Shown one piece after another: positions 12,732 to 61,451 of a stretch of DNA of 64,000 bases. Every line of letters starts with the position of its first letter. Positions within the stretch are counted from its first letter, which is position 1. The DNA is from Alphaproteobacteria bacterium. Lineage in GTDB: Bacteria > Pseudomonadota > Alphaproteobacteria > Rs-D84. A model generated the notes under the pieces. That model was not told where the DNA came from and searched no databases. It worked only from the letters and a program-made list of their open reading frames with translations. The stretch is taken from positions 4,783 to 68,782 of the forward strand of contig WRCA01000002.1 of the NCBI GenBank assembly GCA_009784275.1. The letters run 5' to 3'. A program made the position numbers and the translations under genes.

Positions 12732-12759
12732 AAAAAATCCCGCGAAAGCGGGATTTTTT
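12732..12759. terminator. bidirectional intrinsic terminator AAAAAATCCCGC-GAAA-GCGGGATTTTTT
   Basis: Perfect 7-bp GC-rich stem flanked by an A-tract and a T-tract; lies between convergent genes. Confidence 0.8.
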
Positions 12760-14773
12760 ATATATCTAAATCTTTCACAAACTTTGCATGTTCGGTTATG
12801 AACTTAAATCGGAACTCTGGCTTTTTGCCCATTAATTCCGAAACCAGGGTGCGCGTTTTTTCCGCGTCTTCCGCGCCTTCCTCCGTTTTTGGCGGCAATT
12901 CCACACGTATCAAGCGGCGTGTCTTTGGATTCATTGTGGTTTCTTTCAACTGATTTGGCATCATTTCACCAAGTCCTTTGAACCGGCTGATTTCTACCTT
13001 TTTGCCTTTGAATTTCCCGGTGCGTAATGCTTCCAATTCTTCATCACTATCAACATAAATCGATTCGGTTCCTGCAGTGACTTTATATAATGGGGGGCAG
13101 GACAGGTACAGGTGTCCGTTATGAATTAGCTGTGGCATAATATTATAGAAATTCGCCATCAGCAGGGAGGCTATGTGGCTGCCATCAACGTCCGCATCGG
13201 TCATGATAATAATTTTTTCATAGCGCAATTTCGATTCGTCCCAGTCTTTCGCAGTGCCCGCGCCGATAACATCGATTAACTCGTTCATCTCTTTATTATC
13301 GGCCAATTTTTCAGACGAATTAGAAATTACATTCAAGACTTTTCCGCGAAGGGGCATAATTGCTTGGATTGCGCGATCGCGCGCTTGCTTTGCGGTGCCG
13401 CCCGCAGATTCACCTTCGACTATAAACAGTTCCGTTCCCGCAACTCCGTGCTTGCCACAATCTGCTAGTTTATGCGGCATGCGCGCGCGCTTTGTTGGCG
13501 TTTTGCGCGCGATATCTTTGACCTGTTTTGTTTTGATACGCGCCGCCGCCAGATTATTTACGAACTCCAACAACGCGGTCGCAGTTTTCGGGTCAGATGC
13601 CAAAAACATTTCCCATGGATCGGAAAGAGCTTTTTCCACATATCGCGCAACTTCGGGATTAGACAGCTTTTCTTTTGTCTGACCCAGGAACTGCGGAGTC
13701 TTATAGAATACGCTGACAATGGCGCAGGCCGAATCGAATACATCATCGGCGGTGATTAATGCAGCAGACTTGTTATTAATTTTTTCGCCGTAATTCTTCA
13801 AACCTTTTGTAATTGCGGTGCGAAAACCCGATTCGTGTGTGCCGCCGTCAATTGTCGCGATGGTGTTGCAATAACTGGCAAAGAATCCATCATCAGACGC
13901 TGCGCCATTTTCATCGGTCAAAACTGTTAATGCCCATTCTACACGTCCCGAATCGTCCGGGAATTCTACCGTTCCGCTGAAAAGCTTTGGCAGCAGGCGC
14001 GGCTTTGTCGCGGTTTTTTGTTCCAGAAAGTCTGCAACCCCGTTCGGATAATAGAAAGTTTCAGTCGCGGGCAGGTTCATGTCTTCGGTCAATAACGACG
14101 TGTCGCATTTCCATTCAATCTTTACGCCGCGTGTCAAGAAAGCCTTTGCTCGTGCCATACGATAAATCTTTACCGGCTTGAATGCGGCCGCGGCGCCGAA
14201 AATCTGATCGTCCAAGGTAAAGCGCACGGTTGTGCCATGCTCCTTGGTAGCTTCACCCTTTATTAATGGTGAAATAGTCTTCCCGCGGGAAAATTCCTGG
14301 GTCCAAAAATATCCATCGCGCGCCACACGTACAATTGTATGCGCCGCCAAGGCATTAACAACCGCGGCACCGACGCCATGCAAACCGCCCGATGTCTTAT
14401 AAACATTATTGTCGAATTTGCCGCCGGAATGCAGCATTGCGAATATGATTTCCAGCGCGGATTTGCCCGGATATTTAGGATGTTCATCAATCGGGGCACC
14501 GCGACCGTCGTCAGAAATTTCTATTGTCTTGTTATCTATTAAACTGACTGTGATTTTCTTGGCAAAGCCGGCAACGGCTTCGTCCACCGCATTATCCAGA
14601 ATTTCGGTCGGCAAGTGGTGCCAAGCCTTTTCATCTGTGCCGCCGATATACATTCCGGGGCGCAGACGTACAGGCTCCAGCCCTTCAAGGACTTGGATAT
14701 CAGACGCATTATAAGAGTTAGAGGTTTTTGGTGCCACGGCGGGCAGGGTAGCTGAAAATAAAAAAGATTTCAA
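12758..14773 (-). CDS. parE: type IIA topoisomerase ATPase subunit, topoisomerase IV subunit B-like (671 aa)
   Basis: GHKL ATPase, Toprim EGDSAGG, PLRGKVLNV, (I/L)MTDADVDGSHI; the length fits ParE rather than GyrB (about 800 aa). Confidence 0.75.
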   Translation of the reverse strand: MKSFLFSATLPAVAPKTSNSYNASDIQVLEGLEPVRLRPGMYIGGTDEKAWHHLPTEILDNAVDEAVAGFAKKITVSLIDNKTIEISDDGRGAPIDEHPKYPGKSALEIIFAMLHSGGKFDNNVYKTSGGLHGVGAAVVNALAAHTIVRVARDGYFWTQEFSRGKTISPLIKGEATKEHGTTVRFTLDDQIFGAAAAFKPVKIYRMARAKAFLTRGVKIEWKCDTSLLTEDMNLPATETFYYPNGVADFLEQKTATKPRLLPKLFSGTVEFPDDSGRVEWALTVLTDENGAASDDGFFASYCNTIATIDGGTHESGFRTAITKGLKNYGEKINNKSAALITADDVFDSACAIVSVFYKTPQFLGQTKEKLSNPEVARYVEKALSDPWEMFLASDPKTATALLEFVNNLAAARIKTKQVKDIARKTPTKRARMPHKLADCGKHGVAGTELFIVEGESAGGTAKQARDRAIQAIMPLRGKVLNVISNSSEKLADNKEMNELIDVIGAGTAKDWDESKLRYEKIIIMTDADVDGSHIASLLMANFYNIMPQLIHNGHLYLSCPPLYKVTAGTESIYVDSDEELEALRTGKFKGKKVEISRFKGLGEMMPNQLKETTMNPKTRRLIRVELPPKTEEGAEDAEKTRTLVSELMGKKPEFRFKFITEHAKFVKDLDI

Positions 14774-14790
14774 GTGGCTTGATATAACCG

Positions 14791-14843
14791 CTTGACAAAA
14801 TAATTGACAAATAATGTTATTATGTTATAGTCCATCCGAATCG
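14791..14843 (+). promoter_or_regulatory. sigma70-type promoter (TTGACA-16-TATAGT) plus conserved initial-transcribed block CCATCCGAATCGA
   Basis: Read from sequence; about 80% identical to the 15214-15267 module. Hand-indexed coordinates may be off by 1 nt. Confidence 0.6.
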
Positions 14844-14859
14844 AAACAAGGATATTAAA

Positions 14860-15150
14860 ATGAAAGTCTGGCAAAATGCTCCGAAGTGGGCGAAAAATGT
14901 TATCACTTATGGCACAACCTTTATTGTAAGCGCGGGCATAACCATCGCTGTTTATGAAATTAAGCTCGCCAATGCGATAAAAGAACAGAGAAAGGAAGCC
15001 TCTTGGAATTTTAATGCGCATTGCGAAGATGACGTAAGCCGCGAATTATCAATGAAGTATTGGGGCGAATACCACAAAAATCTGGCCGCCATTAAAGCAT
15101 TAAAACAACAGAGCTGTTTTAATTATGGCAAACAAATGGGTGAAGATTAG
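14860..15150 (+). CDS. small membrane protein (96 aa, one TM)
   Basis: ORF track; hydrophobic segment TYGTTFIVSAGITIAVY; own promoter and own terminator (15185-15208). Confidence 0.5.
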   Translation: MKVWQNAPKWAKNVITYGTTFIVSAGITIAVYEIKLANAIKEQRKEASWNFNAHCEDDVSRELSMKYWGEYHKNLAAIKALKQQSCFNYGKQMGED

Positions 15151-15184
15151 TATTCGTTTTTACTTGCCGTTTATTATCCGACAC

Positions 15185-15208
15185 AAATCCCCTGCAGAGG
15201 GGATTTTT
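15185..15208 (+). terminator. intrinsic terminator AAATCCCCTGCAGAGGGGATTTTT
   Basis: Hairpin plus T-tract. Confidence 0.7.
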
Positions 15209-15213
15209 ATTCT

Positions 15214-15267
15214 TTGACAAAAATTATGGACAAATAAATTTATAATGCTATTATCCATCCGAATCGA
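15214..15267 (+). promoter_or_regulatory. sigma70-type promoter (TGGACA-16-TATTAT) plus the same conserved CCATCCGAATCGA leader block
   Basis: Read from sequence; paralogous to the 14791-14843 module. Confidence 0.6.
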
Positions 15268-15285
15268 GACAAAAAAGGAAAAAAT

Positions 15286-15759
15286 ATGCAAAATAACACA
15301 AAAGCAATCGTCGAATTAAACGAGAATACGCTGTATGAAAAAATCAAGGCAATAACATGCGATAAACTTAATCGGGATGAAAAAGAAGTTGATCTTGATA
15401 AAAGCTTCGTAAATGATCTGGGGGCGGATTCTTTGGATACAGTAGAGCTTTTGATGGTATTTGAACATGAATTTAAATTAAAGATTCCTGAAGATGTGCA
15501 AGAAAGAATCAGTACGGTTGGTGATGCTTTTAAATATATTGCCAATGGTTTGGGTATAAAACTTACTGGAAAATTAACAGGCGACTATCGCGGTAAAAGC
15601 CCCAATGTAACCGGAACAGCTGTCACAAACAATACCCCGAAAACTACGCCAGAAGTTGTATCTTCCGTAAAACCTGAAGAAACGATTGCAAAAGTGGAAA
15701 AAATTAAGAAAAATCGTTTTGGTTTGAACTTTAAAAACTTATTCGGAAGAAAAAAATAA
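15286..15759 (+). CDS. acyl carrier protein paralog with a roughly 70-aa Lys/Thr-rich C-terminal extension
   Basis: [19 protein letters not shown] phosphopantetheine-attachment motif; 157 aa versus 93 aa for the canonical acpP at 59126. Confidence 0.7.
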
Positions 15760-15786
15760 AAAATCCCGCCAATCGGCGGGATTTTT
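15759..15786. terminator. intrinsic terminator AAAAATCCCGCC-AATC-GGCGGGATTTTT
   Basis: Hairpin plus T-tract. Confidence 0.75.
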
Positions 15787-15832
15787 GATGGGGCTTGATT
15801 TTTACCTGCACTTCATTATATTCTAGGACACC

Positions 15833-16966
15833 ATGAATAAAAATCCTTATGAAATTCTGGGCGTTGCAAAAGATGCCAATGAGGCGGATATTAAAAAGGC
15901 TTATCACAAGCTGGTTATGAAATATCATCCTGATAAAAATCCCGGCGACAAATCTGCAGAAGAAAAATTCAAAGAAGTTAATAACGCTTTCGAGATTCTA
16001 AAAGATCCGCAAAAGCGCGCCGCATACGATCAATTCGGCTCTGCCGCGTTTGCCGGGGGCAATGGTGCGTCTGCTGGCGGAAACCCATTCGGAAATATGG
16101 GCGGCGGAGAATTCCACTTCAACATGGGCGGCGGGAATATGGAAGATATCCTGCGCGAGGCAATGAAGTCTTTCGGGTTTGCCGGTGGAATGGATGATTT
16201 CGGTATGGGCGGCGGCGCACGTGGCGCTCGCGCCGAGGCTTCGCATGCTGGACGTGATTTGTTGCATGATGTTGTGATTTCATTGCGCGATGCTTATTTC
16301 GGAAAGATGGAAACAATTAAATTCACAACTAATGTCGCGTGCGAAAAGTGCGGTGGACATGGCACCGCGGACGCCAAGGAAGCACCCATTTGCAAAACTT
16401 GCCGTGGCGGCGGCACTGTGCGTTCTCGTCGTGGATTATTCTTATCTGAATCCGTATGTCCCGACTGCCAAGGACTGGGGCGCAAGATTTCAAAAAAATG
16501 TCAGGCTTGCGAAGGACTGGGCGTTGTTGGCAAGCGCCGCGAAATCAAAGTTGAAATTCCAGCGGGTGTCTCTGACGGCACTCGTTTGCGTTTACGCGGA
16601 CAGGGCGAGGCTGGTATTCTGGGCGGACCAACGGGTGATTTCTATGTAGATATTCATATTCAACCGGACCAAAGATTCGAACGATTCGGTGAAGATTTAT
16701 TAATGCGCAAAGCCATTCCGTTTGCGACCCTTGCGCTGGGTGGAGAAATCGAAGTCGAAACAATCGATGACAAAAAAATTAGCGTAAAGATTCCGGCAGG
16801 AACCCAGATTGGTGAAAGACTACGGGTTCGCGGCCGCGGAATGCCGTCCGGCGACCTGTATATCGAAATTGCAACAGAAATTCCGACGAAGTTAACGGAT
16901 AAGCAAAAAAAAGCTTTGGAAGAATTTGCGGGCTCGACCGGCAAGAAAAAACGTGGGTGGCTTTAA
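15833..16966 (+). CDS. dnaJ: molecular chaperone DnaJ
   Basis: J-domain with HPD, G/F-rich linker, four CxxCxGxG zinc-finger repeats; no dnaK adjacent. Confidence 0.93.
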   Translation: MNKNPYEILGVAKDANEADIKKAYHKLVMKYHPDKNPGDKSAEEKFKEVNNAFEILKDPQKRAAYDQFGSAAFAGGNGASAGGNPFGNMGGGEFHFNMGGGNMEDILREAMKSFGFAGGMDDFGMGGGARGARAEASHAGRDLLHDVVISLRDAYFGKMETIKFTTNVACEKCGGHGTADAKEAPICKTCRGGGTVRSRRGLFLSESVCPDCQGLGRKISKKCQACEGLGVVGKRREIKVEIPAGVSDGTRLRLRGQGEAGILGGPTGDFYVDIHIQPDQRFERFGEDLLMRKAIPFATLALGGEIEVETIDDKKISVKIPAGTQIGERLRVRGRGMPSGDLYIEIATEIPTKLTDKQKKALEEFAGSTGKKKRGWL

Positions 16967-21596: not shown

Positions 21597-22418
21597 ATGT
21601 TCCGAAAGTTCTTAATTTTCGCGCTTTTCGCGACAGCGTGCGGTTATGTTTTTGCGTCAGAATATGCGCCAGTATGGCCCGCCCCAGGCGATGAAGCGGA
21701 TATTCAGGTCATTAATGTCCCGATGGATTTCGATCCGGCCAGTGGTGTCGGAAACGAATTTTATTCAGATGATGCGGATAATGTTCGCATAGTTTCAAAG
21801 ATTGGCGCAGACTTGGTTGTTGAAAATAATTTCAATATGGCCGGCCGCGGCGAAGGCTTTTGGTCCGGCGGCGCTGATTTGACCCAGATATACCAAGCAC
21901 CTCCCGGATTCAATATGTATGAAGGTCAGGCAGAAATGCCGTTGATGCATGCCGAAATGATGGAAGATGATGGCGGTGCGGTTTTGGCTATGTCCCGATC
22001 CGACAGGGATAGAAGAAGCGCGAGAAGTCTTGATGCCGCAGGTGTGTATGCTGGCGGCAGGGCATCATCCGGCATGTTTATAGGGTCAAGCGATTCCGGT
22101 GATGATTTTGAATTCGAAGTCGAAGATTCTGCGGACCTTGGCAAAGCCGGCGCGGCAAAAGATCAGGTGCGCAGCTGGGTTGTTGCATCAGGACAGACTT
22201 TGCGGTCAGTTCTGCAAGAATGGTGTGATAAAGAAGGCTGGGATTTGGTGTGGAATACCGCGCGCGAATATCCAATTGCCGCATCTGCTGTGTTCAAAGG
22301 ACGCTTTATGGATGTATCAAGCGCATTGGTACGCAACTTCAGCCGCGCTGATCCCATTCCGTATGCAAAGTTTTACAAAGGCAACCGCGTTCTAGTTGTA
22401 ACAACTAATGAAGAATAA
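21597..22418 (+). CDS. secreted protein with TcpQ-like C-terminal domain (putative secretin partner/pilotin)
   Basis: Signal peptide; acidic low-complexity middle; C-terminal VASGQTLRSVLQEWCDKEGWDLVWN block reminiscent of the TcpQ/BfpG family; immediately upstream of the secretin. Confidence 0.5.
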   Translation: MFRKFLIFALFATACGYVFASEYAPVWPAPGDEADIQVINVPMDFDPASGVGNEFYSDDADNVRIVSKIGADLVVENNFNMAGRGEGFWSGGADLTQIYQAPPGFNMYEGQAEMPLMHAEMMEDDGGAVLAMSRSDRDRRSARSLDAAGVYAGGRASSGMFIGSSDSGDDFEFEVEDSADLGKAGAAKDQVRSWVVASGQTLRSVLQEWCDKEGWDLVWNTAREYPIAASAVFKGRFMDVSSALVRNFSRADPIPYAKFYKGNRVLVVTTNEE

Positions 22419-22452
22419 TAAATAGCCTGTGGTCAAAAGCTGGGAGAGATAA

Positions 22453-24009
22453 ATGAAAAAATTATTAAAACCAAGTTTACTTACTTTGGGCTTTGGGCTT
22501 TTGGCAGTGAGTTTGCTTTTTGGTTGCGCGAAAAAAGAAAGCGCGCAAGTCGCGGCAACTGTGGATCAAGATTTTATAAATGCTCATGAAGCTTTCGAGT
22601 TGTCCAAAGGTCCAAAAGCGCGGGTTTCCAATGATACGATTTCCACCAGCGAAGGCGTATGGTTGGGCAACAGGTCGACCATATTAGAACATAGAAATAA
22701 TCTGCCTGCGGAATTTGAAGACGATACAGGAATTACGATCATGCTGACCGAGCCTGTATCCTTGCAAGTCTTAGCCAATAATATTTATTCCATAACCGGA
22801 ATTCCGGTGAAAATAGACAGCCAAATAAACGCGGAAAAATTAAAGAAGACCATGGGGGTCGCTTATACAGGCAGGCTGTCGGGGCTGATGACCCAGGTTG
22901 CGACTGACTTGGATTTGCTGTGGTACTATGACAAAAGCAGCATTGTGTTTTATGAAACCGAAACGAAAACATTCACGCTTTTTGCGCTGGGGACGGATGT
23001 AAGTTATCAATCCAGCGTTCGCACGGAAGATGGTAATCAAGTTTCTCTGGAATCTAACTTGCGCGAATGGGAAGAAGTTGAGCACACATTGGAATCCATC
23101 ATAGGTGGCAACGGTGATGCGAAATTTACTGTATCACGCTCTTTGGGAACAATCACGGTTACGGCGCCCCCGTCGGTTCAAGCGCGTGTGGGCGACTATA
23201 TTAACAAACAGAACAAACGCTTGTCACAATTGGTGGCCATTGATGTAAAAGTTTTACAAGTATCGATTCAAAATTCATCGGCGTTTGGGTTGAACCTGGG
23301 CGCAGCGATCAGCACGGTTTCGGGATTGAATGTTGTGGCCAGTCCGACGACCCCGGTCAGCTCTCCGGAAGTAAGCGCGTTAAGTGTTGCGGTTCTTGCA
23401 ACCAGCGGCAGCTTGTCCAATCTTGATGGCAGCCGCGCACTGATAGAAGCATTGGCAAAGCAGGGCAAGATTTCCCTTGTCACGAATGTCGGCGTAACAA
23501 CCCGCAATAATCGTATCGCACCTGTATCAAATACTCGCAGCACCGGATATATCAAACGATTCGAATCGCGTAACTTTACTACGGTTGAATCCAGTACCGT
23601 TGATCAGGCTGATTTGGAAACAGGATTCTCGATGCAGCTGCAGCCGAATATATTGGAAAATGGAAAGATTCTGTTGCTTTTCAGAATGAGCGTGCGCGAG
23701 CTGATAGCGATGGGAACAACTAGAATCGGCGAAGTGACATTGCAATTACCTGATGTGGAAGAACGCAGCTTTATGCAGGAAGTTGTTATGGAATCCGGAC
23801 AGATGCTTGTGTTGTCGGGCTTTGAAAGACAAACGAATAATGATCAACGCTATGGGCTGGGTGATCCGAACTTTATGGCGTTGTCTGGGTCACGCGAATC
23901 CAGCAGCAATCGTGATGTGCTGGTTGTGATGTTGACGCCGCAAGTGCTTGTTTCCCCGATGGATGCTGAAAGAAGTATACAGCAACACTGGGGCGCCCCG
24001 CTTAATTAG
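22453..24009 (+). CDS. lipoprotein secretin (type IVb pilus / T2SS-type outer-membrane channel)
   Basis: Lipobox LLFGCAK; C-terminal secretin domain (VAIDVKVLQVS...; VLVVMLTPQVLV). Confidence 0.8.
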   Translation: MKKLLKPSLLTLGFGLLAVSLLFGCAKKESAQVAATVDQDFINAHEAFELSKGPKARVSNDTISTSEGVWLGNRSTILEHRNNLPAEFEDDTGITIMLTEPVSLQVLANNIYSITGIPVKIDSQINAEKLKKTMGVAYTGRLSGLMTQVATDLDLLWYYDKSSIVFYETETKTFTLFALGTDVSYQSSVRTEDGNQVSLESNLREWEEVEHTLESIIGGNGDAKFTVSRSLGTITVTAPPSVQARVGDYINKQNKRLSQLVAIDVKVLQVSIQNSSAFGLNLGAAISTVSGLNVVASPTTPVSSPEVSALSVAVLATSGSLSNLDGSRALIEALAKQGKISLVTNVGVTTRNNRIAPVSNTRSTGYIKRFESRNFTTVESSTVDQADLETGFSMQLQPNILENGKILLLFRMSVRELIAMGTTRIGEVTLQLPDVEERSFMQEVVMESGQMLVLSGFERQTNNDQRYGLGDPNFMALSGSRESSSNRDVLVVMLTPQVLVSPMDAERSIQQHWGAPLN

Positions 24010-57607: not shown

Positions 57608-58009
57608 ATGAAATTTATAGAAACCATAAAAGACTACTTTTCCGCAAGGACCGCTTATCAGATCGCTTTGGGCAAGTTGGTAATTGCTGGTTATGAAATA
57701 AGAGGGTATCAGGACGTTTCCGAAGAAGAATTCAGAAGCTATAAGTCCAGAAAACAAAAACGAGATCATTGCATACATGTCGTTAATTATATAGAGGATA
57801 AGGATGATGGGGAATATAGGTGGTTTGAATCTCACGAATTGTTTTGCTACTGTGAAAATTTTGAGGGCAAGAAATTGTGTAAAGATAAAGAGTGCCCAGG
57901 CCATAAAAACTATCGTAGACACCACAGATGTTACAACAATTATATCAAGGCCGAGAAACACATGAAAGAATGCTGGAAGGCTATATTTACCAGAAATCCG
58001 AAAAAGTAA
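57608..58009 (+). CDS. hypothetical Cys-rich protein, paralog B (ends [12 protein letters not shown])
   Basis: ORF track; AGAGGG RBS. Confidence 0.5.
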   Translation: MKFIETIKDYFSARTAYQIALGKLVIAGYEIRGYQDVSEEEFRSYKSRKQKRDHCIHVVNYIEDKDDGEYRWFESHELFCYCENFEGKKLCKDKECPGHKNYRRHHRCYNNYIKAEKHMKECWKAIFTRNPKK

Positions 58010-58011
58010 GA

Positions 58012-59013
58012 ATGTCGCATCAATTTTTCTTTTCACCGCATATTATTGGAAGCTTGCCTGTGCCAGCGACTGGCTTTGATGTGGTGCAAGATATTGCAGA
58101 ACCACGCTTGCGCTTGTATATAACTTCGCGCGGGATTAAGACTTTTTTTACACGCAAGCGGGTTCGCGGGCGCGACGTTCGTATAATTATCGGCCGCTTT
58201 CCTGATGTTTCCGTAGAAGATGCCCGTAATGCGGTTTCGGAAAAGATCGCGGAATCCGCCGCACCGGTTAAAGTTCGCCGCAATCGTATCGTTTTCGACA
58301 GATTATTTGCCATTTATCTTTCCCGCAAAGTCAACAGGACCGAAGAAAGCCTGATGAAACTGAAACGCACCGCATCGCGTCATTGGGCATCCTTGATGCA
58401 GCGAGAAGTTGCAGATATCACTTCGGATGATCTGGCAGCGATACATGAAAAGATTTCCGAAACTGCTGGCATTGCGACCGCAAACCGCATGCTGGAAATT
58501 TTAAAGAGCATGTTCAAGTTTGCAATAGAGCAGGGACATATAACCAAAAATCCTGCTGCCGATCTGGAGAAATTTACCGAAAATCGCCGTCATCGTGATT
58601 TAACCAATGAAGAGTTTTCGCGTCTTATGAACGCCATCAAGAAAGAAAAGAATTATACTCTACGCTCGGCTTTCCTGATGCTGGTATTTGGGTTTGCCCC
58701 AAAGTCTGCTATTTTTGCCATGCGCTGGCGAGATTTTGATTTTAACAGTGATACCTGGCTGGATCGTCCCCTGTCCGACCCGGCGGTTGTATTATTGCGG
58801 AATGTTCCTCAATCTGGAACTTGGGTGTTCCCCAGTCGCGGACGGCACCTGACTGATCCGCGCAAGGCTTGGGCGGGTCTGGTGCGCAAGGCTGGCTTAT
58901 TGGATGTTCAAATGAACGATATTTACAAGCATTTATCCCGAAATCTTGCTTGGTCCGCCGATCGGGAGCAATTAAGGGCGAATATGAACGAGGTAATTGA
59001 CCATTTGTTATAA
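58012..59013 (+). pseudogene. tyrosine recombinase/integrase remnant (N-terminal SAM-like plus partial catalytic domain, truncated before the Tyr nucleophile)
   Basis: Integrase-like blocks (LTNEEFSRL, WRDFDF, VFPS, HxxR) present; Box I Arg replaced (GFAPK); the ORF ends about 20 aa before the expected catalytic Tyr. Confidence 0.5.
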
Positions 59014-59125: not shown

Positions 59126-59407
59126 ATGAGTACTTTTGACAAAGTTCAAGCGATAATAGTCGAAAAATTAGGCGTTCCAAAAGAAAAGGTCACCATGGAC
59201 GCAGAATTTATCGCAGACTTGGGCGCAGACTCGCTGGATACGGTCGAATTCATTATGGACGTTGAGAAAGAATTCAATATCACAATTCCAGATGATGCCG
59301 CTGCAAAGATGAAAAAGGTTAAAGATGCCGTCGACTATATCGATGCACATTCAAAGCCTGCTGGCGGTGCGAAAGCGCCGGAAGCAAAACCTGCTGCAAA
59401 AAAATAA
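59126..59407 (+). CDS. acpP: acyl carrier protein
   Basis: [10 protein letters not shown] motif; adjacent to fabF; Ala/Lys-rich C-terminal tail. Confidence 0.9.
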   Translation: MSTFDKVQAIIVEKLGVPKEKVTMDAEFIADLGADSLDTVEFIMDVEKEFNITIPDDAAAKMKKVKDAVDYIDAHSKPAGGAKAPEAKPAAKK

Positions 59408-59438
59408 AAAATCCCGCAAAAGCGGGATTTAATTTTTT
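59405..59438. terminator. bidirectional terminator AAAAAATCCCGC-AAAA-GCGGGATTTAATTTTTT
   Basis: Between convergent genes. Confidence 0.75.
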
Positions 59439-60092
59439 CTAGCGGAAATAAAGTCCCCCGCAAATTCCCCACACAAACAAGTTATGTCCGGAATATGTAA
59501 TAGAAGAATTGTCTTTTTTTCCATCAATCGCCATCCCAACATTCGTCGATAGGCCGATAAATAGGGCCGGCACTTCGCTGCTTTTCGGATTAATAATGAA
59601 TTTAAGATCAACAGGGATTGATAGTTGGTTTCTGTTACCAGCTTTTCCGATTTCTTTTGTATTTGATATAAACCGCCTGATCCCAGCGCCAGTGCTGATA
59701 TCTATCGCAATTATTTTGCCAAAGCCAAATTGCAATGCAGCCATCGGAACGAATTCTATGTACATGCCGTCAGTGTATCCCTCGCCAAAACTTCCGTCCG
59801 GGCAGGTAAAAGATGAAAATTCTGATCTGCTTCCAAAGCCGACTCTGCCGGCCAGGCCCCAATCAATATCGAACTTTCCTTTGCTTTTAGCGTTGACGTA
59901 ATAAATAGTTTCCAGCCGACCGGCGGTTTCTGACTTATTTTTATTTGTTTTGCCGAACAGCATTGATGGTCCGAAACAAAAGCCGGATTCTTTTCCTTTG
60001 AAAGGTTTTACATTTTGCGCATCCGCTTTCTTTGGGGCAAAGCTGAACAATACGATGAATGCCATTAATAAGGCTTTTTCAAAATTTTTCAT
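59439..60092 (-). CDS. outer-membrane beta-barrel protein (OmpW/OmpA-like small barrel)
   Basis: Signal peptide ...KKADA; amphipathic strands; ends GGLYFR. Confidence 0.5.
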   Translation of the reverse strand: MKNFEKALLMAFIVLFSFAPKKADAQNVKPFKGKESGFCFGPSMLFGKTNKNKSETAGRLETIYYVNAKSKGKFDIDWGLAGRVGFGSRSEFSSFTCPDGSFGEGYTDGMYIEFVPMAALQFGFGKIIAIDISTGAGIRRFISNTKEIGKAGNRNQLSIPVDLKFIINPKSSEVPALFIGLSTNVGMAIDGKKDNSSITYSGHNLFVWGICGGLYFR

Positions 60093-60209
60093 GATTGATA
60101 TAATATCCAAAATAATTAATTTGTCAATATTAATTTGATCTTTTACAAACTATTTGCGGGGCTGATATTTTCTGATAGTATTTGCGTAAGACCAATAAAC
60201 GGAGTTTTC

Positions 60210-61451
60210 ATGACACGCAGAGTAGTCATCACAGGCATGGGAATAGTGTCCCCTAACGGCACAGGAATAGACCATGCTTGGAAAAATATAGTCGCCGGTA
60301 AGTCCGGCATAGGCCTGATATCCACAATCGATGTTTCTGATATGCCATCGAAAATCGGCGGAGAGCCAACACTCGGCAAAGAACCAGGCGAATGCGATTT
60401 TGATAAAGTTGCAGATGCGAAAGAACAACGCAGATCGGATAAATCCATATTATATGCGCTGGTGGCTGCAGACGAAGCTTTGCACGATGCGGGCGACTTG
60501 GGCGATCCCGAACGCATAGGCGTTTGCATTGGAGGTGGAATTGGTGGGCTGCAGACCATTTATGATGCTTGTATGGAGCTGGATAAAGAAGGTCCGCGCC
60601 GTATAAATCCATTTTTTATCCCCAGTGCTTTGATTAACATGGCGGCCGGACAAGTTTCCATTAAATACGGATTCAAAGGCCCGAATATTTCCATCGTAAC
60701 TGCTTGCGCGACAGGAACTCATTCGATTGGCGAAGGCGCGCGTTTGATTATGCATGGCGACGCCGATGTGATGGTTTGCGGCGGAACCGAAGCAGGGATA
60801 TGTCGAATCGGACTGGCAGGATTTTGCGCTATGCGCGCTTTATCGACACGAAATGATGACCCGGCAGGCGCATCCCGGCCTTGGGACAAAGGGCGCGATG
60901 GATTTGTAATTGCCGAAGGCGCAGGCGTTTTGGTCTTGGAAGAATATGAACATGCCAAAGCGCGTGGCGCAAAGATTTACGCCGAAGTTGCGGGTTATGG
61001 AATGTCCGGCGATGCGCATCATATCACAGCGCCGGCTGAAGGCGGCGAAGGCGGGCTTCGCGCGATGAAGGCGGCATTAAAGGACGCGAGTCTTTCGCCC
61101 GAATCAGTGGACTATATTAATGCGCATGGCACCAGCACAGGCCTTGGCGATGTTGGTGAATTAACTGCGGTGCAAACATTGTTTGGCAATTTGCCGGTTT
61201 CTATGTCCAGCACGAAGTCTATGACAGGACACTTGTTGGGCGCGGCGGGTGCAGTAGAGGCGATTTTCAGTGTTCTTGCCATTCGCGATCAAATTGTTCC
61301 ACCAACGATTAATTTGACGGATCCAGAAGACATGGTTGGGAATTTCGATTTGGTGCCGAATGTTGCGAAAAAGCGCAAGGTTGATATTGCGATCAGCAAT
61401 TCGTTTGGTTTTGGCGGCACAAACGCGAGTGTATTATTTAAGAAAGTTTAA
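60210..61451 (+). CDS. fabF: beta-ketoacyl-ACP synthase II
   Basis: Active-site Cys (SIVTACATG), His-His (NAHGTST, HLLGAAG), C-terminal GFGGTNASVLF. Confidence 0.93.
   Translation: MTRRVVITGMGIVSPNGTGIDHAWKNIVAGKSGIGLISTIDVSDMPSKIGGEPTLGKEPGECDFDKVADAKEQRRSDKSILYALVAADEALHDAGDLGDPERIGVCIGGGIGGLQTIYDACMELDKEGPRRINPFFIPSALINMAAGQVSIKYGFKGPNISIVTACATGTHSIGEGARLIMHGDADVMVCGGTEAGICRIGLAGFCAMRALSTRNDDPAGASRPWDKGRDGFVIAEGAGVLVLEEYEHAKARGAKIYAEVAGYGMSGDAHHITAPAEGGEGGLRAMKAALKDASLSPESVDYINAHGTSTGLGDVGELTAVQTLFGNLPVSMSSTKSMTGHLLGAAGAVEAIFSVLAIRDQIVPPTINLTDPEDMVGNFDLVPNVAKKRKVDIAISNSFGFGGTNASVLFKKV

Follow-up and report, generated by a model that had tools for sequence, protein, structure and literature searches.

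Two copies of a promoter-leader module of ~58 nt lie between parE and dnaJ in the 64,000-nt stretch of DNA analyzed here (the window), one in front of an orphan small gene, ORF96, and the other in front of a gene for a second acyl carrier protein (ACP), ACP157. We consider it probable, at roughly 0.7, that the two copies are paralogous and stem from a local duplication of a promoter together with its 5′ untranslated region (5′UTR), that is, from promoter reuse or promoter capture. In the series of events that would best explain the locus, the parE-dnaJ spacer of this lineage gained a low-GC insert of ~1 kb in which the parE-proximal module (copy 1) was the resident one, and a copy of that module (copy 2; ~58–70 nt in this explanation) was placed before a horizontally acquired, Bacteroidota-like ACP gene that would otherwise have had neither a promoter nor a ribosome-binding context that an alphaproteobacterium could use. 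Transcription from what would be a strong promoter probably begins ~7 nt past the −10 element, within a block shared by both copies, and each unit would end at its own intrinsic terminator. We infer the direction of the duplication, the horizontal origin of the ACP gene, and the activity of the promoters from the DNA sequence.

Copy 1 spans positions 14792–14849 and copy 2 positions 15214–15272, both on the plus strand, as delimited by sequence inspection, motif search, and self-alignment. Each opens with a TTGACAAA box (at 14792 and 15214, respectively, with a 1-nt indel between the copies) and continues into a near-consensus σ70 promoter with an extended −10 element (TGn). In copy 1, a 16-nt spacer separates the TTGACA −35 element (14804–14809) from the TATAGT −10 element (14826–14831), with the TG at 14823–14824; there follow the 18-nt block CCATCCGAATCGAAACAA (14832–14849), the Shine-Dalgarno (SD) sequence AAGGA (14848–14852), and the ATG at 14860. 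Copy 2 combines a TGGACA −35 element (15227–15232), again a 16-nt spacer, and a TATTAT −10 element (15249–15254; TG at 15246–15247) with the block CCATCCGAATCGAGACAA (15255–15272), the SD sequence AAGGA (15275–15279), and the ATG at 15286. The 18-nt block has the consensus CCATCCGAATCGA(A/G)ACAA, is identical between the copies at 17 of 18 positions, and starts with CCATCCG, which is G+C-rich against A+T-rich surroundings. It is predicted to consist of a discriminator, CCATCC, and the first ~12 transcribed nucleotides: at the customary distance of 6–8 nt from the −10 element, the transcriptional start site would be G14838 or A14839 in copy 1 and G15261 or A15262 in copy 2. Leaders beginning at these predicted sites are ~22–25 nt long and A-rich, with AAGGA placed 7 nt before the ATG. 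If copy 2 derives from copy 1, the shared block would amount to the discriminator, the initial transcribed sequence, and the start of the 5′UTR, inherited together by copying.

An earlier reading made from the sequence alone (the sequence-only reading) had described two consecutive cassettes with ~80% identical promoters and leaders, and alignment of the window with itself bears this out: an ungapped 53-nt match of 83% identity joins 14797–14849 to 15220–15272, and blastn within the window assigns it an E-value of 2e-4. As that reading also held, the conservation runs through the leader and not into the coding sequence, for the DNA similarity of the two units ends before the ATGs and the proteins are unrelated, with no BLASTP alignment between ORF96 and ACP157 at E ≤ 100. 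Nor had a third copy been seen in the window, and here motif, blastn, and profile searches agree that the 64-kb window contains none; the other ~9.6 kb of the 73.6-kb contig likewise lacks one. Searching the window for the 18-mer with up to three mismatches returned just the two sites, compared to an expectation of 0.14, and two or more sites were present in 0 of 100 shuffles. These figures bear on the proposal that the similarity is a by-product of chance acting on a generic strong promoter type. Promoters of the form TTGACAA(A/T)-16-TAnnAT are indeed common in this organism, with ~10 other sites in the window, and this general form explains the hexamer identities (11/12). However, the spacer and the 18-nt block are both absent from those ~10 promoters, and the 18-mer counts and the blastn E-value effectively refute coincidence as the source of the match. 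Since the form is generic in the organism, the specific signal lies mainly in the spacer and the 18-nt block.

By layout, each of the two units is monocistronic and consists of its own promoter, one gene, and its own intrinsic terminator, all in plus-strand orientation. Both of the terminators called in the sequence-only reading were recovered. The terminator of the ORF96 unit (15185–15210, +) is a 9-bp stem (hairpin 15185–15206) followed by a T-run, and that of the ACP157 unit (15756–15789) is a bidirectional hairpin (15759–15786) found as an inverted repeat. ORF96 (14860–15150, +) encodes a 96-aa orphan protein, which NCBI lists as hypothetical in an alphaproteobacterial metagenome-assembled genome (MAG). 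It has no match in Pfam or NCBIfam, and a search of 5.8 billion proteins for homologues returned only ORF96 itself. Its description as a membrane protein is plausible but borderline, as it rests on one borderline hydrophobic segment (residues 14–32) at which the hydropathy peaks at 1.58.

The second unit encodes ACP157 (157 aa; 15286–15759, +), an acyl carrier protein by both of its hallmarks, a PP-binding fold and a DSL motif for serine attachment. Its ACP domain covers residues 17–87, contains an intact DSLD serine motif, and scores 48 bits with PF00550, 91 bits with TIGR00517 (cut-off, 70.45), and 94 bits with NF002151 (cut-off, 92); PF00550 was likewise above its cut-off. A 70-aa C-terminal extension follows that has a counterpart in none of the protein matches, and full-length ACP157 is unique. 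The earlier label of ACP paralog was correct, since a canonical acpP-fabF pair also lies in the window at 59126–61451 (acpP, 93 aa, 59126–59407, +; fabF, 60135–61451), which makes ACP157 an extra copy. The promoter and leader of the canonical acpP are unrelated to the duplicated module.

We infer that the ACP157 gene was horizontally acquired because it looks foreign in three respects: its ACP domain shares 45% identity with the AcpP native to this genome and 76–81% with Bacteroidota-like AcpP proteins, and its GC content is low (34.8% vs. 43.3% for the canonical acpP). The closer proteins come from acpP-fabF-rnc loci on other contigs of the same metagenome series. This synteny and the TAnnTTTG promoter motif are typical of Bacteroidota. 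Motifs of the TAnnTTTG type were found upstream of acpP in two of the three closest ACP loci (L006 and L008) and were not clear in the upstream region of the third (L007), and it is from these promoter motifs together with the synteny that the closest loci appear Bacteroidota-like. The best partial matches of ACP157 were canonical acpP-fabF loci of other organisms, and the module motif was absent from them.

Both units lie in the region between parE and dnaJ (14738–15832), where the boundaries of the insert can be recognized by comparison with related genomes. To the left, parE, which encodes topoisomerase IV subunit B (12758–14737, −; Pfam GyrB, Toprim, and HATPase_c), probably starts at the GTG at 14737, giving a protein of 659 aa; the longest open reading frame (ORF) extends to a TTG at 14773, and the ParE proteins of relatives, whose 5′ gene ends we aligned, measure 658–659 aa. 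To the right, dnaJ (15833–16966, +; identified by Pfam) is preceded by a promoter of σ32-like form, GGCTTGATTTTT-N-CATTATATT (15792–15822, +), that is kept upstream of dnaJ in relatives and marks the right edge of the insert. A putative left remnant of the ancestral spacer, TTTCAAGTGGCTTGAT (14768–14783, +), was identified from a repeat and by comparison with relatives whose spacers are uninterrupted (L015, L093, and others). The repeat in question, GGCTTGAT, corresponds to the −35 portion of the dnaJ promoter that relatives share; it occurs at 14776–14783 and recurs at 15792–15799, so that it brackets the insert.

In 72 of the 82 loci of relatives, parE and dnaJ are divergent and adjacent at a distance of 79–167 bp, and in the other 10 they are separated by inserts of 463–1297 bp (loci L090 and L094 being counted separately); several of the insert-bearing loci are from termite guts. 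The insert in the window is ~1 kb long and has a GC content of 35.9%, compared to 47.8% for parE and 49.3% for dnaJ. Judging from the short spacers of the relatives, this low GC content, and the bracketing GGCTTGAT sequences, the two units are a lineage-specific insertion at a variable spot. The window ParE is 80–86% identical to ParE proteins from MAGs of termite and vertebrate guts that bear the labels Candidatus Enterousia, Alphaproteobacteria, or Rickettsiales, the best match in the GTDB representative set being 86%; this ParE scan supplied 80 loci for comparison. Even the closest relatives differ in the content of the spacer: L091 (ParE 93% identical) has an insert with one 229-aa orphan gene, L092 (88%) has an insert with one 83-aa orphan gene, and L093 (87%) has no insert. 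The ORFs of the ten inserts differ, and none has a credible Pfam match. Two ORFs in the L017 insert had looked ACP-like by eye and were dropped for want of Pfam support. The contig recurs in five termite-gut metagenome assemblies, which are identical over 14700–15900 and offered no strain polymorphism to compare. As a separate observation, the region just upstream of parE (~150 aligned columns) is 75% identical between the window and locus L014 and 68% identical between the window and L091, though parE itself is nearer to that of L091, which hints that the immediate flank of the island has a history of its own or has undergone recombination.

We searched the window and ~1 Mb of relatives' DNA with a profile built from copy 1, copy 2, and a similar sequence in L014. 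The profile matched these three sites only, plus, weakly, the corresponding parE-proximal site of L091; elsewhere in the relatives' DNA, fuzzy and profile searches gave just chance matches in coding regions. The L014 module, TAGACAAAATATC TTGACA-16-TATCGT TCGTCCGAAACGAACAAAGGAT, precedes an unrelated 86-aa ORF, and the orthologous promoter in L091 precedes the 229-aa orphan gene. Since both orthologues occupy the same parE-proximal position, copy 1 would be the resident promoter, orthologous by position, and copy 2 would be the extra one. Duplication of a promoter cassette was one of the explanations put forward in the sequence-only reading, and it is supported by the lineage-specific insert, by the orthologues of copy 1 with their unrelated cargo, and by the foreign-looking ACP gene.

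The other explanation offered there, a shared cis-regulatory element, gained no support from RNA structure, Rfam, symmetry, or further copies in the 73.6-kb contig and ~1 Mb of relatives' DNA, and the block on which it centers is less conserved in the orthologues than the −35 to −10 region. In its DNA form, the 18-nt block would be an operator, at which a transcription factor bound across the discriminator and +1 co-regulates ORF96 and ACP157 and possibly a wider regulon. The comparison of the two copies gives this proposal some footing: they agree at 17 of 18 block positions and at 21 of 28 positions in the −35 to −10 region (38/46 in total), the block overlaps the predicted start site, which is a classical position for a repressor, and the adjacent units could be functionally linked. 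The clustering of mismatches in the −35 to −10 region (7/28, compared to 1/18 in the block) could reflect selection or gene conversion acting on the block, but the extra conservation of the block falls short of significance (Fisher p = 0.12; binomial p = 0.04). Repeat analysis and inspection revealed no dyad or internal direct repeat within the block, the 73.6-kb contig holds no further copy of it, and no regulator gene was found in or beside the insert. The orthologous promoters point the same way. Copy 1 matches the L014 promoter at 23 of 28 positions from −35 to −10 and at 13 of 18 in the block (36/46 in total), copy 2 matches it at 20/28 and 12/18, and copy 1 matches the L091 promoter at ~20/28 and ~10/18 (~30/46 in total; hand count). 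Since across species the block is kept no better than the −35 to −10 region, it does not appear to be under special long-term constraint, and we consider an operator unlikely.

The discriminators differ as well, being TCGTCCG in L014 and TAATGCG in L091. In the window copies, the stretch from the −10 element to the predicted +1, CCATCCG, recalls the G+C-rich discriminators of ppGpp/DksA-sensitive rRNA and ribosomal protein promoters; the likeness is one of sequence alone. Two other resemblances were noted by eye and rejected, as neither is common to both copies: a CtrA-box-like TAAT-N7-TAAT is found in copy 1 only, and a DnaA-box-like TTATCCATC is found in copy 2 only.

The block might instead act after transcription, as a site for a small RNA or an RNA-binding protein or as part of a structure that controls translation, a proposal for which the extension of the conservation into the transcribed leader speaks. 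The ACAAGGAT context in copy 1 may also bear a loose likeness to GGA-type protein-binding motifs. Nevertheless, the predicted leaders are just ~22–25 nt long, and when they were folded with and without the discriminator, the minimum free energies lay between −4.1 and 0 kcal/mol and the z-scores relative to shuffles between 0.0 and 0.7, showing no structure beyond that of the shuffled sequences. No Rfam family matched the leaders, either at the gathering threshold over the whole window or at E ≤ 1 over 14700–15900, and all sub-threshold Rfam matches fell on the terminator at 15759–15786. With z-scores near 0, no match to a curated family, and a block that is not conserved in the orthologues, we regard a post-transcriptional element as very improbable.

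Local duplication, which we prefer, also has to be weighed against the possibility of a mobile repeat: the module could be one of many dispersed, promoter-bearing copies in the genome, of the Correia, ERIC, REPIN, or another mobile-promoter type, and may be swapped between co-resident species along with orphan gene cassettes. Promoter-bearing repeats of the MITE or REP type have terminal inverted repeats and many dispersed copies. The module resembles them in being short, non-coding, and predicted to provide promoter activity for different genes; three unrelated genes stand behind it (ORF96, ACP157, and the 86-aa ORF of L014), the parE-dnaJ spacer is hypervariable, and the greater similarity of the DNA upstream of parE to L014 than to L091 (75% vs. 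68%) hints at recombination. Within the 73.6-kb contig, the module is present in two local copies, both inside one insert, and repeat analysis around its 58 nt revealed neither terminal inverted repeats nor a target-site duplication; the duplication breakpoints carry no signature that would point to a mechanism. The module was not found elsewhere in the ~1 Mb of relatives' DNA, and the insert had no match in plasmid and phage collections. A scan of JGI metagenome contigs, a collection without the window organism, for the pattern TATNNTYCRTCCGAAWCGARMMAA returned L014's own contig and one chance match, which falls within the coding sequence of a long ORF; the contig concerned (L089) is unrelated. 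Taken together, a mobile repeat seems quite improbable.

A bolder reading would make the parE-dnaJ spacer of termite-gut Enterousia-like alphaproteobacteria a hot spot for cassettes, with a portable module (the two window copies and that of L014) whose block is kept by selection. We give it little credence. If it were true, it would describe a recombinase-less, self-promoting cassette system in which orphan small-gene cassettes are gained, lost, and swapped among co-resident species, the module moves along with them or is redistributed among them, and the block, as an operator or start-site setting common to the copies, co-regulates any cargo. The consecutive small, unrelated, and often orphan genes at a hypervariable spot are also reminiscent of integron cassettes. 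Such cassettes carry an attC site at the 3′ end, lie near intI and attI, and are usually promoterless. The two units differ on each of these counts: they have their own promoters and Rho-independent terminators, nothing but a GC hairpin and a T-run closes each of them at the 3′ side, and no attC-like site, intI, or attI accompanies them. The sole integrase-like ORF in the window (57928–59013) is 43 kb from the insert, and the neighbors of the units are the housekeeping genes parE and dnaJ.

Local duplication of the promoter and leader would make the locus one more example of an event already known, and nothing points to a new regulatory mechanism. The value of the case is illustrative rather than conceptual: it looks like a clean case, from nature, in which a gene gained horizontally may have been made expressible, through what appears to be the copying of a neighboring native promoter, start site, and ribosome-binding leader, and it singles out the space between parE and dnaJ as a place where orphan small genes vary within an uncultured gut lineage. 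Pairs of upstream regions with at least 80% identity in front of unrelated genes are documented and common according to a survey of promoter reuse, or putative mobile promoters, where most families are described as simple pairs of ~80–100% identity (Matus-Garcia, Nijveen and van Passel, NAR 2012; summarized in PMC3575422). The present pair matches that description in its identity of at least 80% over at least 50 nt (here, 83% over 53 nt), its non-homologous genes, and the absence of a known mobile element. It differs in that the copies are adjacent, 423 bp apart within one insert, rather than dispersed, and in that the match takes in the −10 element, the predicted start site, and the 5′UTR. 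The interval compared in the survey was −150 to −50 relative to the start codon (PMC3575422), whereas the match here covers −63 to −11 in one unit and −66 to −14 in the other, so that ~14–17 nt fall within that interval; the discrepancy reflects how the survey was designed and has no biological meaning. Promoter capture that activates silent or horizontally acquired genes has also been observed experimentally, often with IS elements or tandem amplification; examples are ldhB in Lactococcus and the amplification of cit in the long-term evolution experiment with E. coli (both cited in PMC3575422). Unlike those events, the one proposed here is deduced from sequence, and no IS element is present; the likeness lies in a resident promoter copied in front of a gene that lacked a suitable one, which in this locus would be the foreign-looking ACP gene.

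The spacer between parE and dnaJ (window 14738-15832) proved to be hypervariable within the clade when 82 loci of relatives were compared. It measures 79-167 bp in 72 of the 82 loci, and the 10 others, several of them from termite guts, carry inserts of 463-1297 bp between the two genes. ORF content differs from one insert-bearing relative to the next, and none of the ORFs in these inserts matched a Pfam family. The loci listed for the variable spacer are the window itself and, among the relatives, L010, L011, L014, L017, L022, L039, L053, L091, and L092. The parE-dnaJ loci of L039 and L053, as well as those of L044 and L081, come from GTDB records whose titles read "uncultured Muribaculaceae bacterium" or "Bacteroides fragilis." Their ParE proteins are 80-81% identical to the alphaproteobacterial ParE of the window, and the records look like mislabelled or mis-binned assemblies.

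Both L014 and L091 carry an orthologue of copy 1, the parE-proximal promoter-leader module (14792-14849), at the same position, and we compared their flanks with the window. Over the first ~150 aligned columns, which cover the parE 5′ end and upstream sequence (window about 14738-14800), L014 is closer to the window than L091 (75% vs. 68% identity), but the order flips in the remainder of parE (about 72% for L014 and about 80% for L091). A recombination tract carrying the island, located at the parE 5′ end and upstream, is possible.

The longest parE ORF encodes 671 aa from a TTG at 14773. Because the ParE proteins of relatives are 658-659 aa long and their alignment begins at the GVAPKT... 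region, the GTG at 14737 is the likelier start. Read on the opposite strand, the TTGACAAA boxes of copy 1 are TTGTCA, and a divergent parE promoter probably overlaps them. On the other side of the insert, dnaJ is preceded by a promoter of the form CTTGATTTTT-N(12-14)-(C/T)ATTATAT, at 15792-15822 in the window, that is conserved across at least 45 of 86 loci and resembles the sigma-32 (RpoH) promoters of alphaproteobacteria. Several relatives (L017, L053) have an inserted gene whose terminator hairpin overlaps the CTTGAT element of this promoter.

ACP157 (15286-15759), an acyl carrier protein additional to the genome's own AcpP (59126-59407), shares 45% identity with the latter and 76-81% with AcpP from acpP-fabF-rnc loci with Bacteroidota-type upstream motifs. 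Its C-terminal extension of 70 aa is unique and ends in a basic tail. The ACP157 gene was probably acquired horizontally.

Directly upstream of the canonical acpP lies an integrase-like ORF (57928-59013) with Arm-DNA-bind_3 and Phage_int_M domains. No catalytic-domain match was found in this ORF, and no tRNA genes were found across the whole 64-kb window; possible readings of the ORF are a degraded integrase and the remnant of an island. Elsewhere in this small gut alphaproteobacterium, TcpQ-like and secretin genes of a pilus or secretion apparatus adjoin at 21597-24009.
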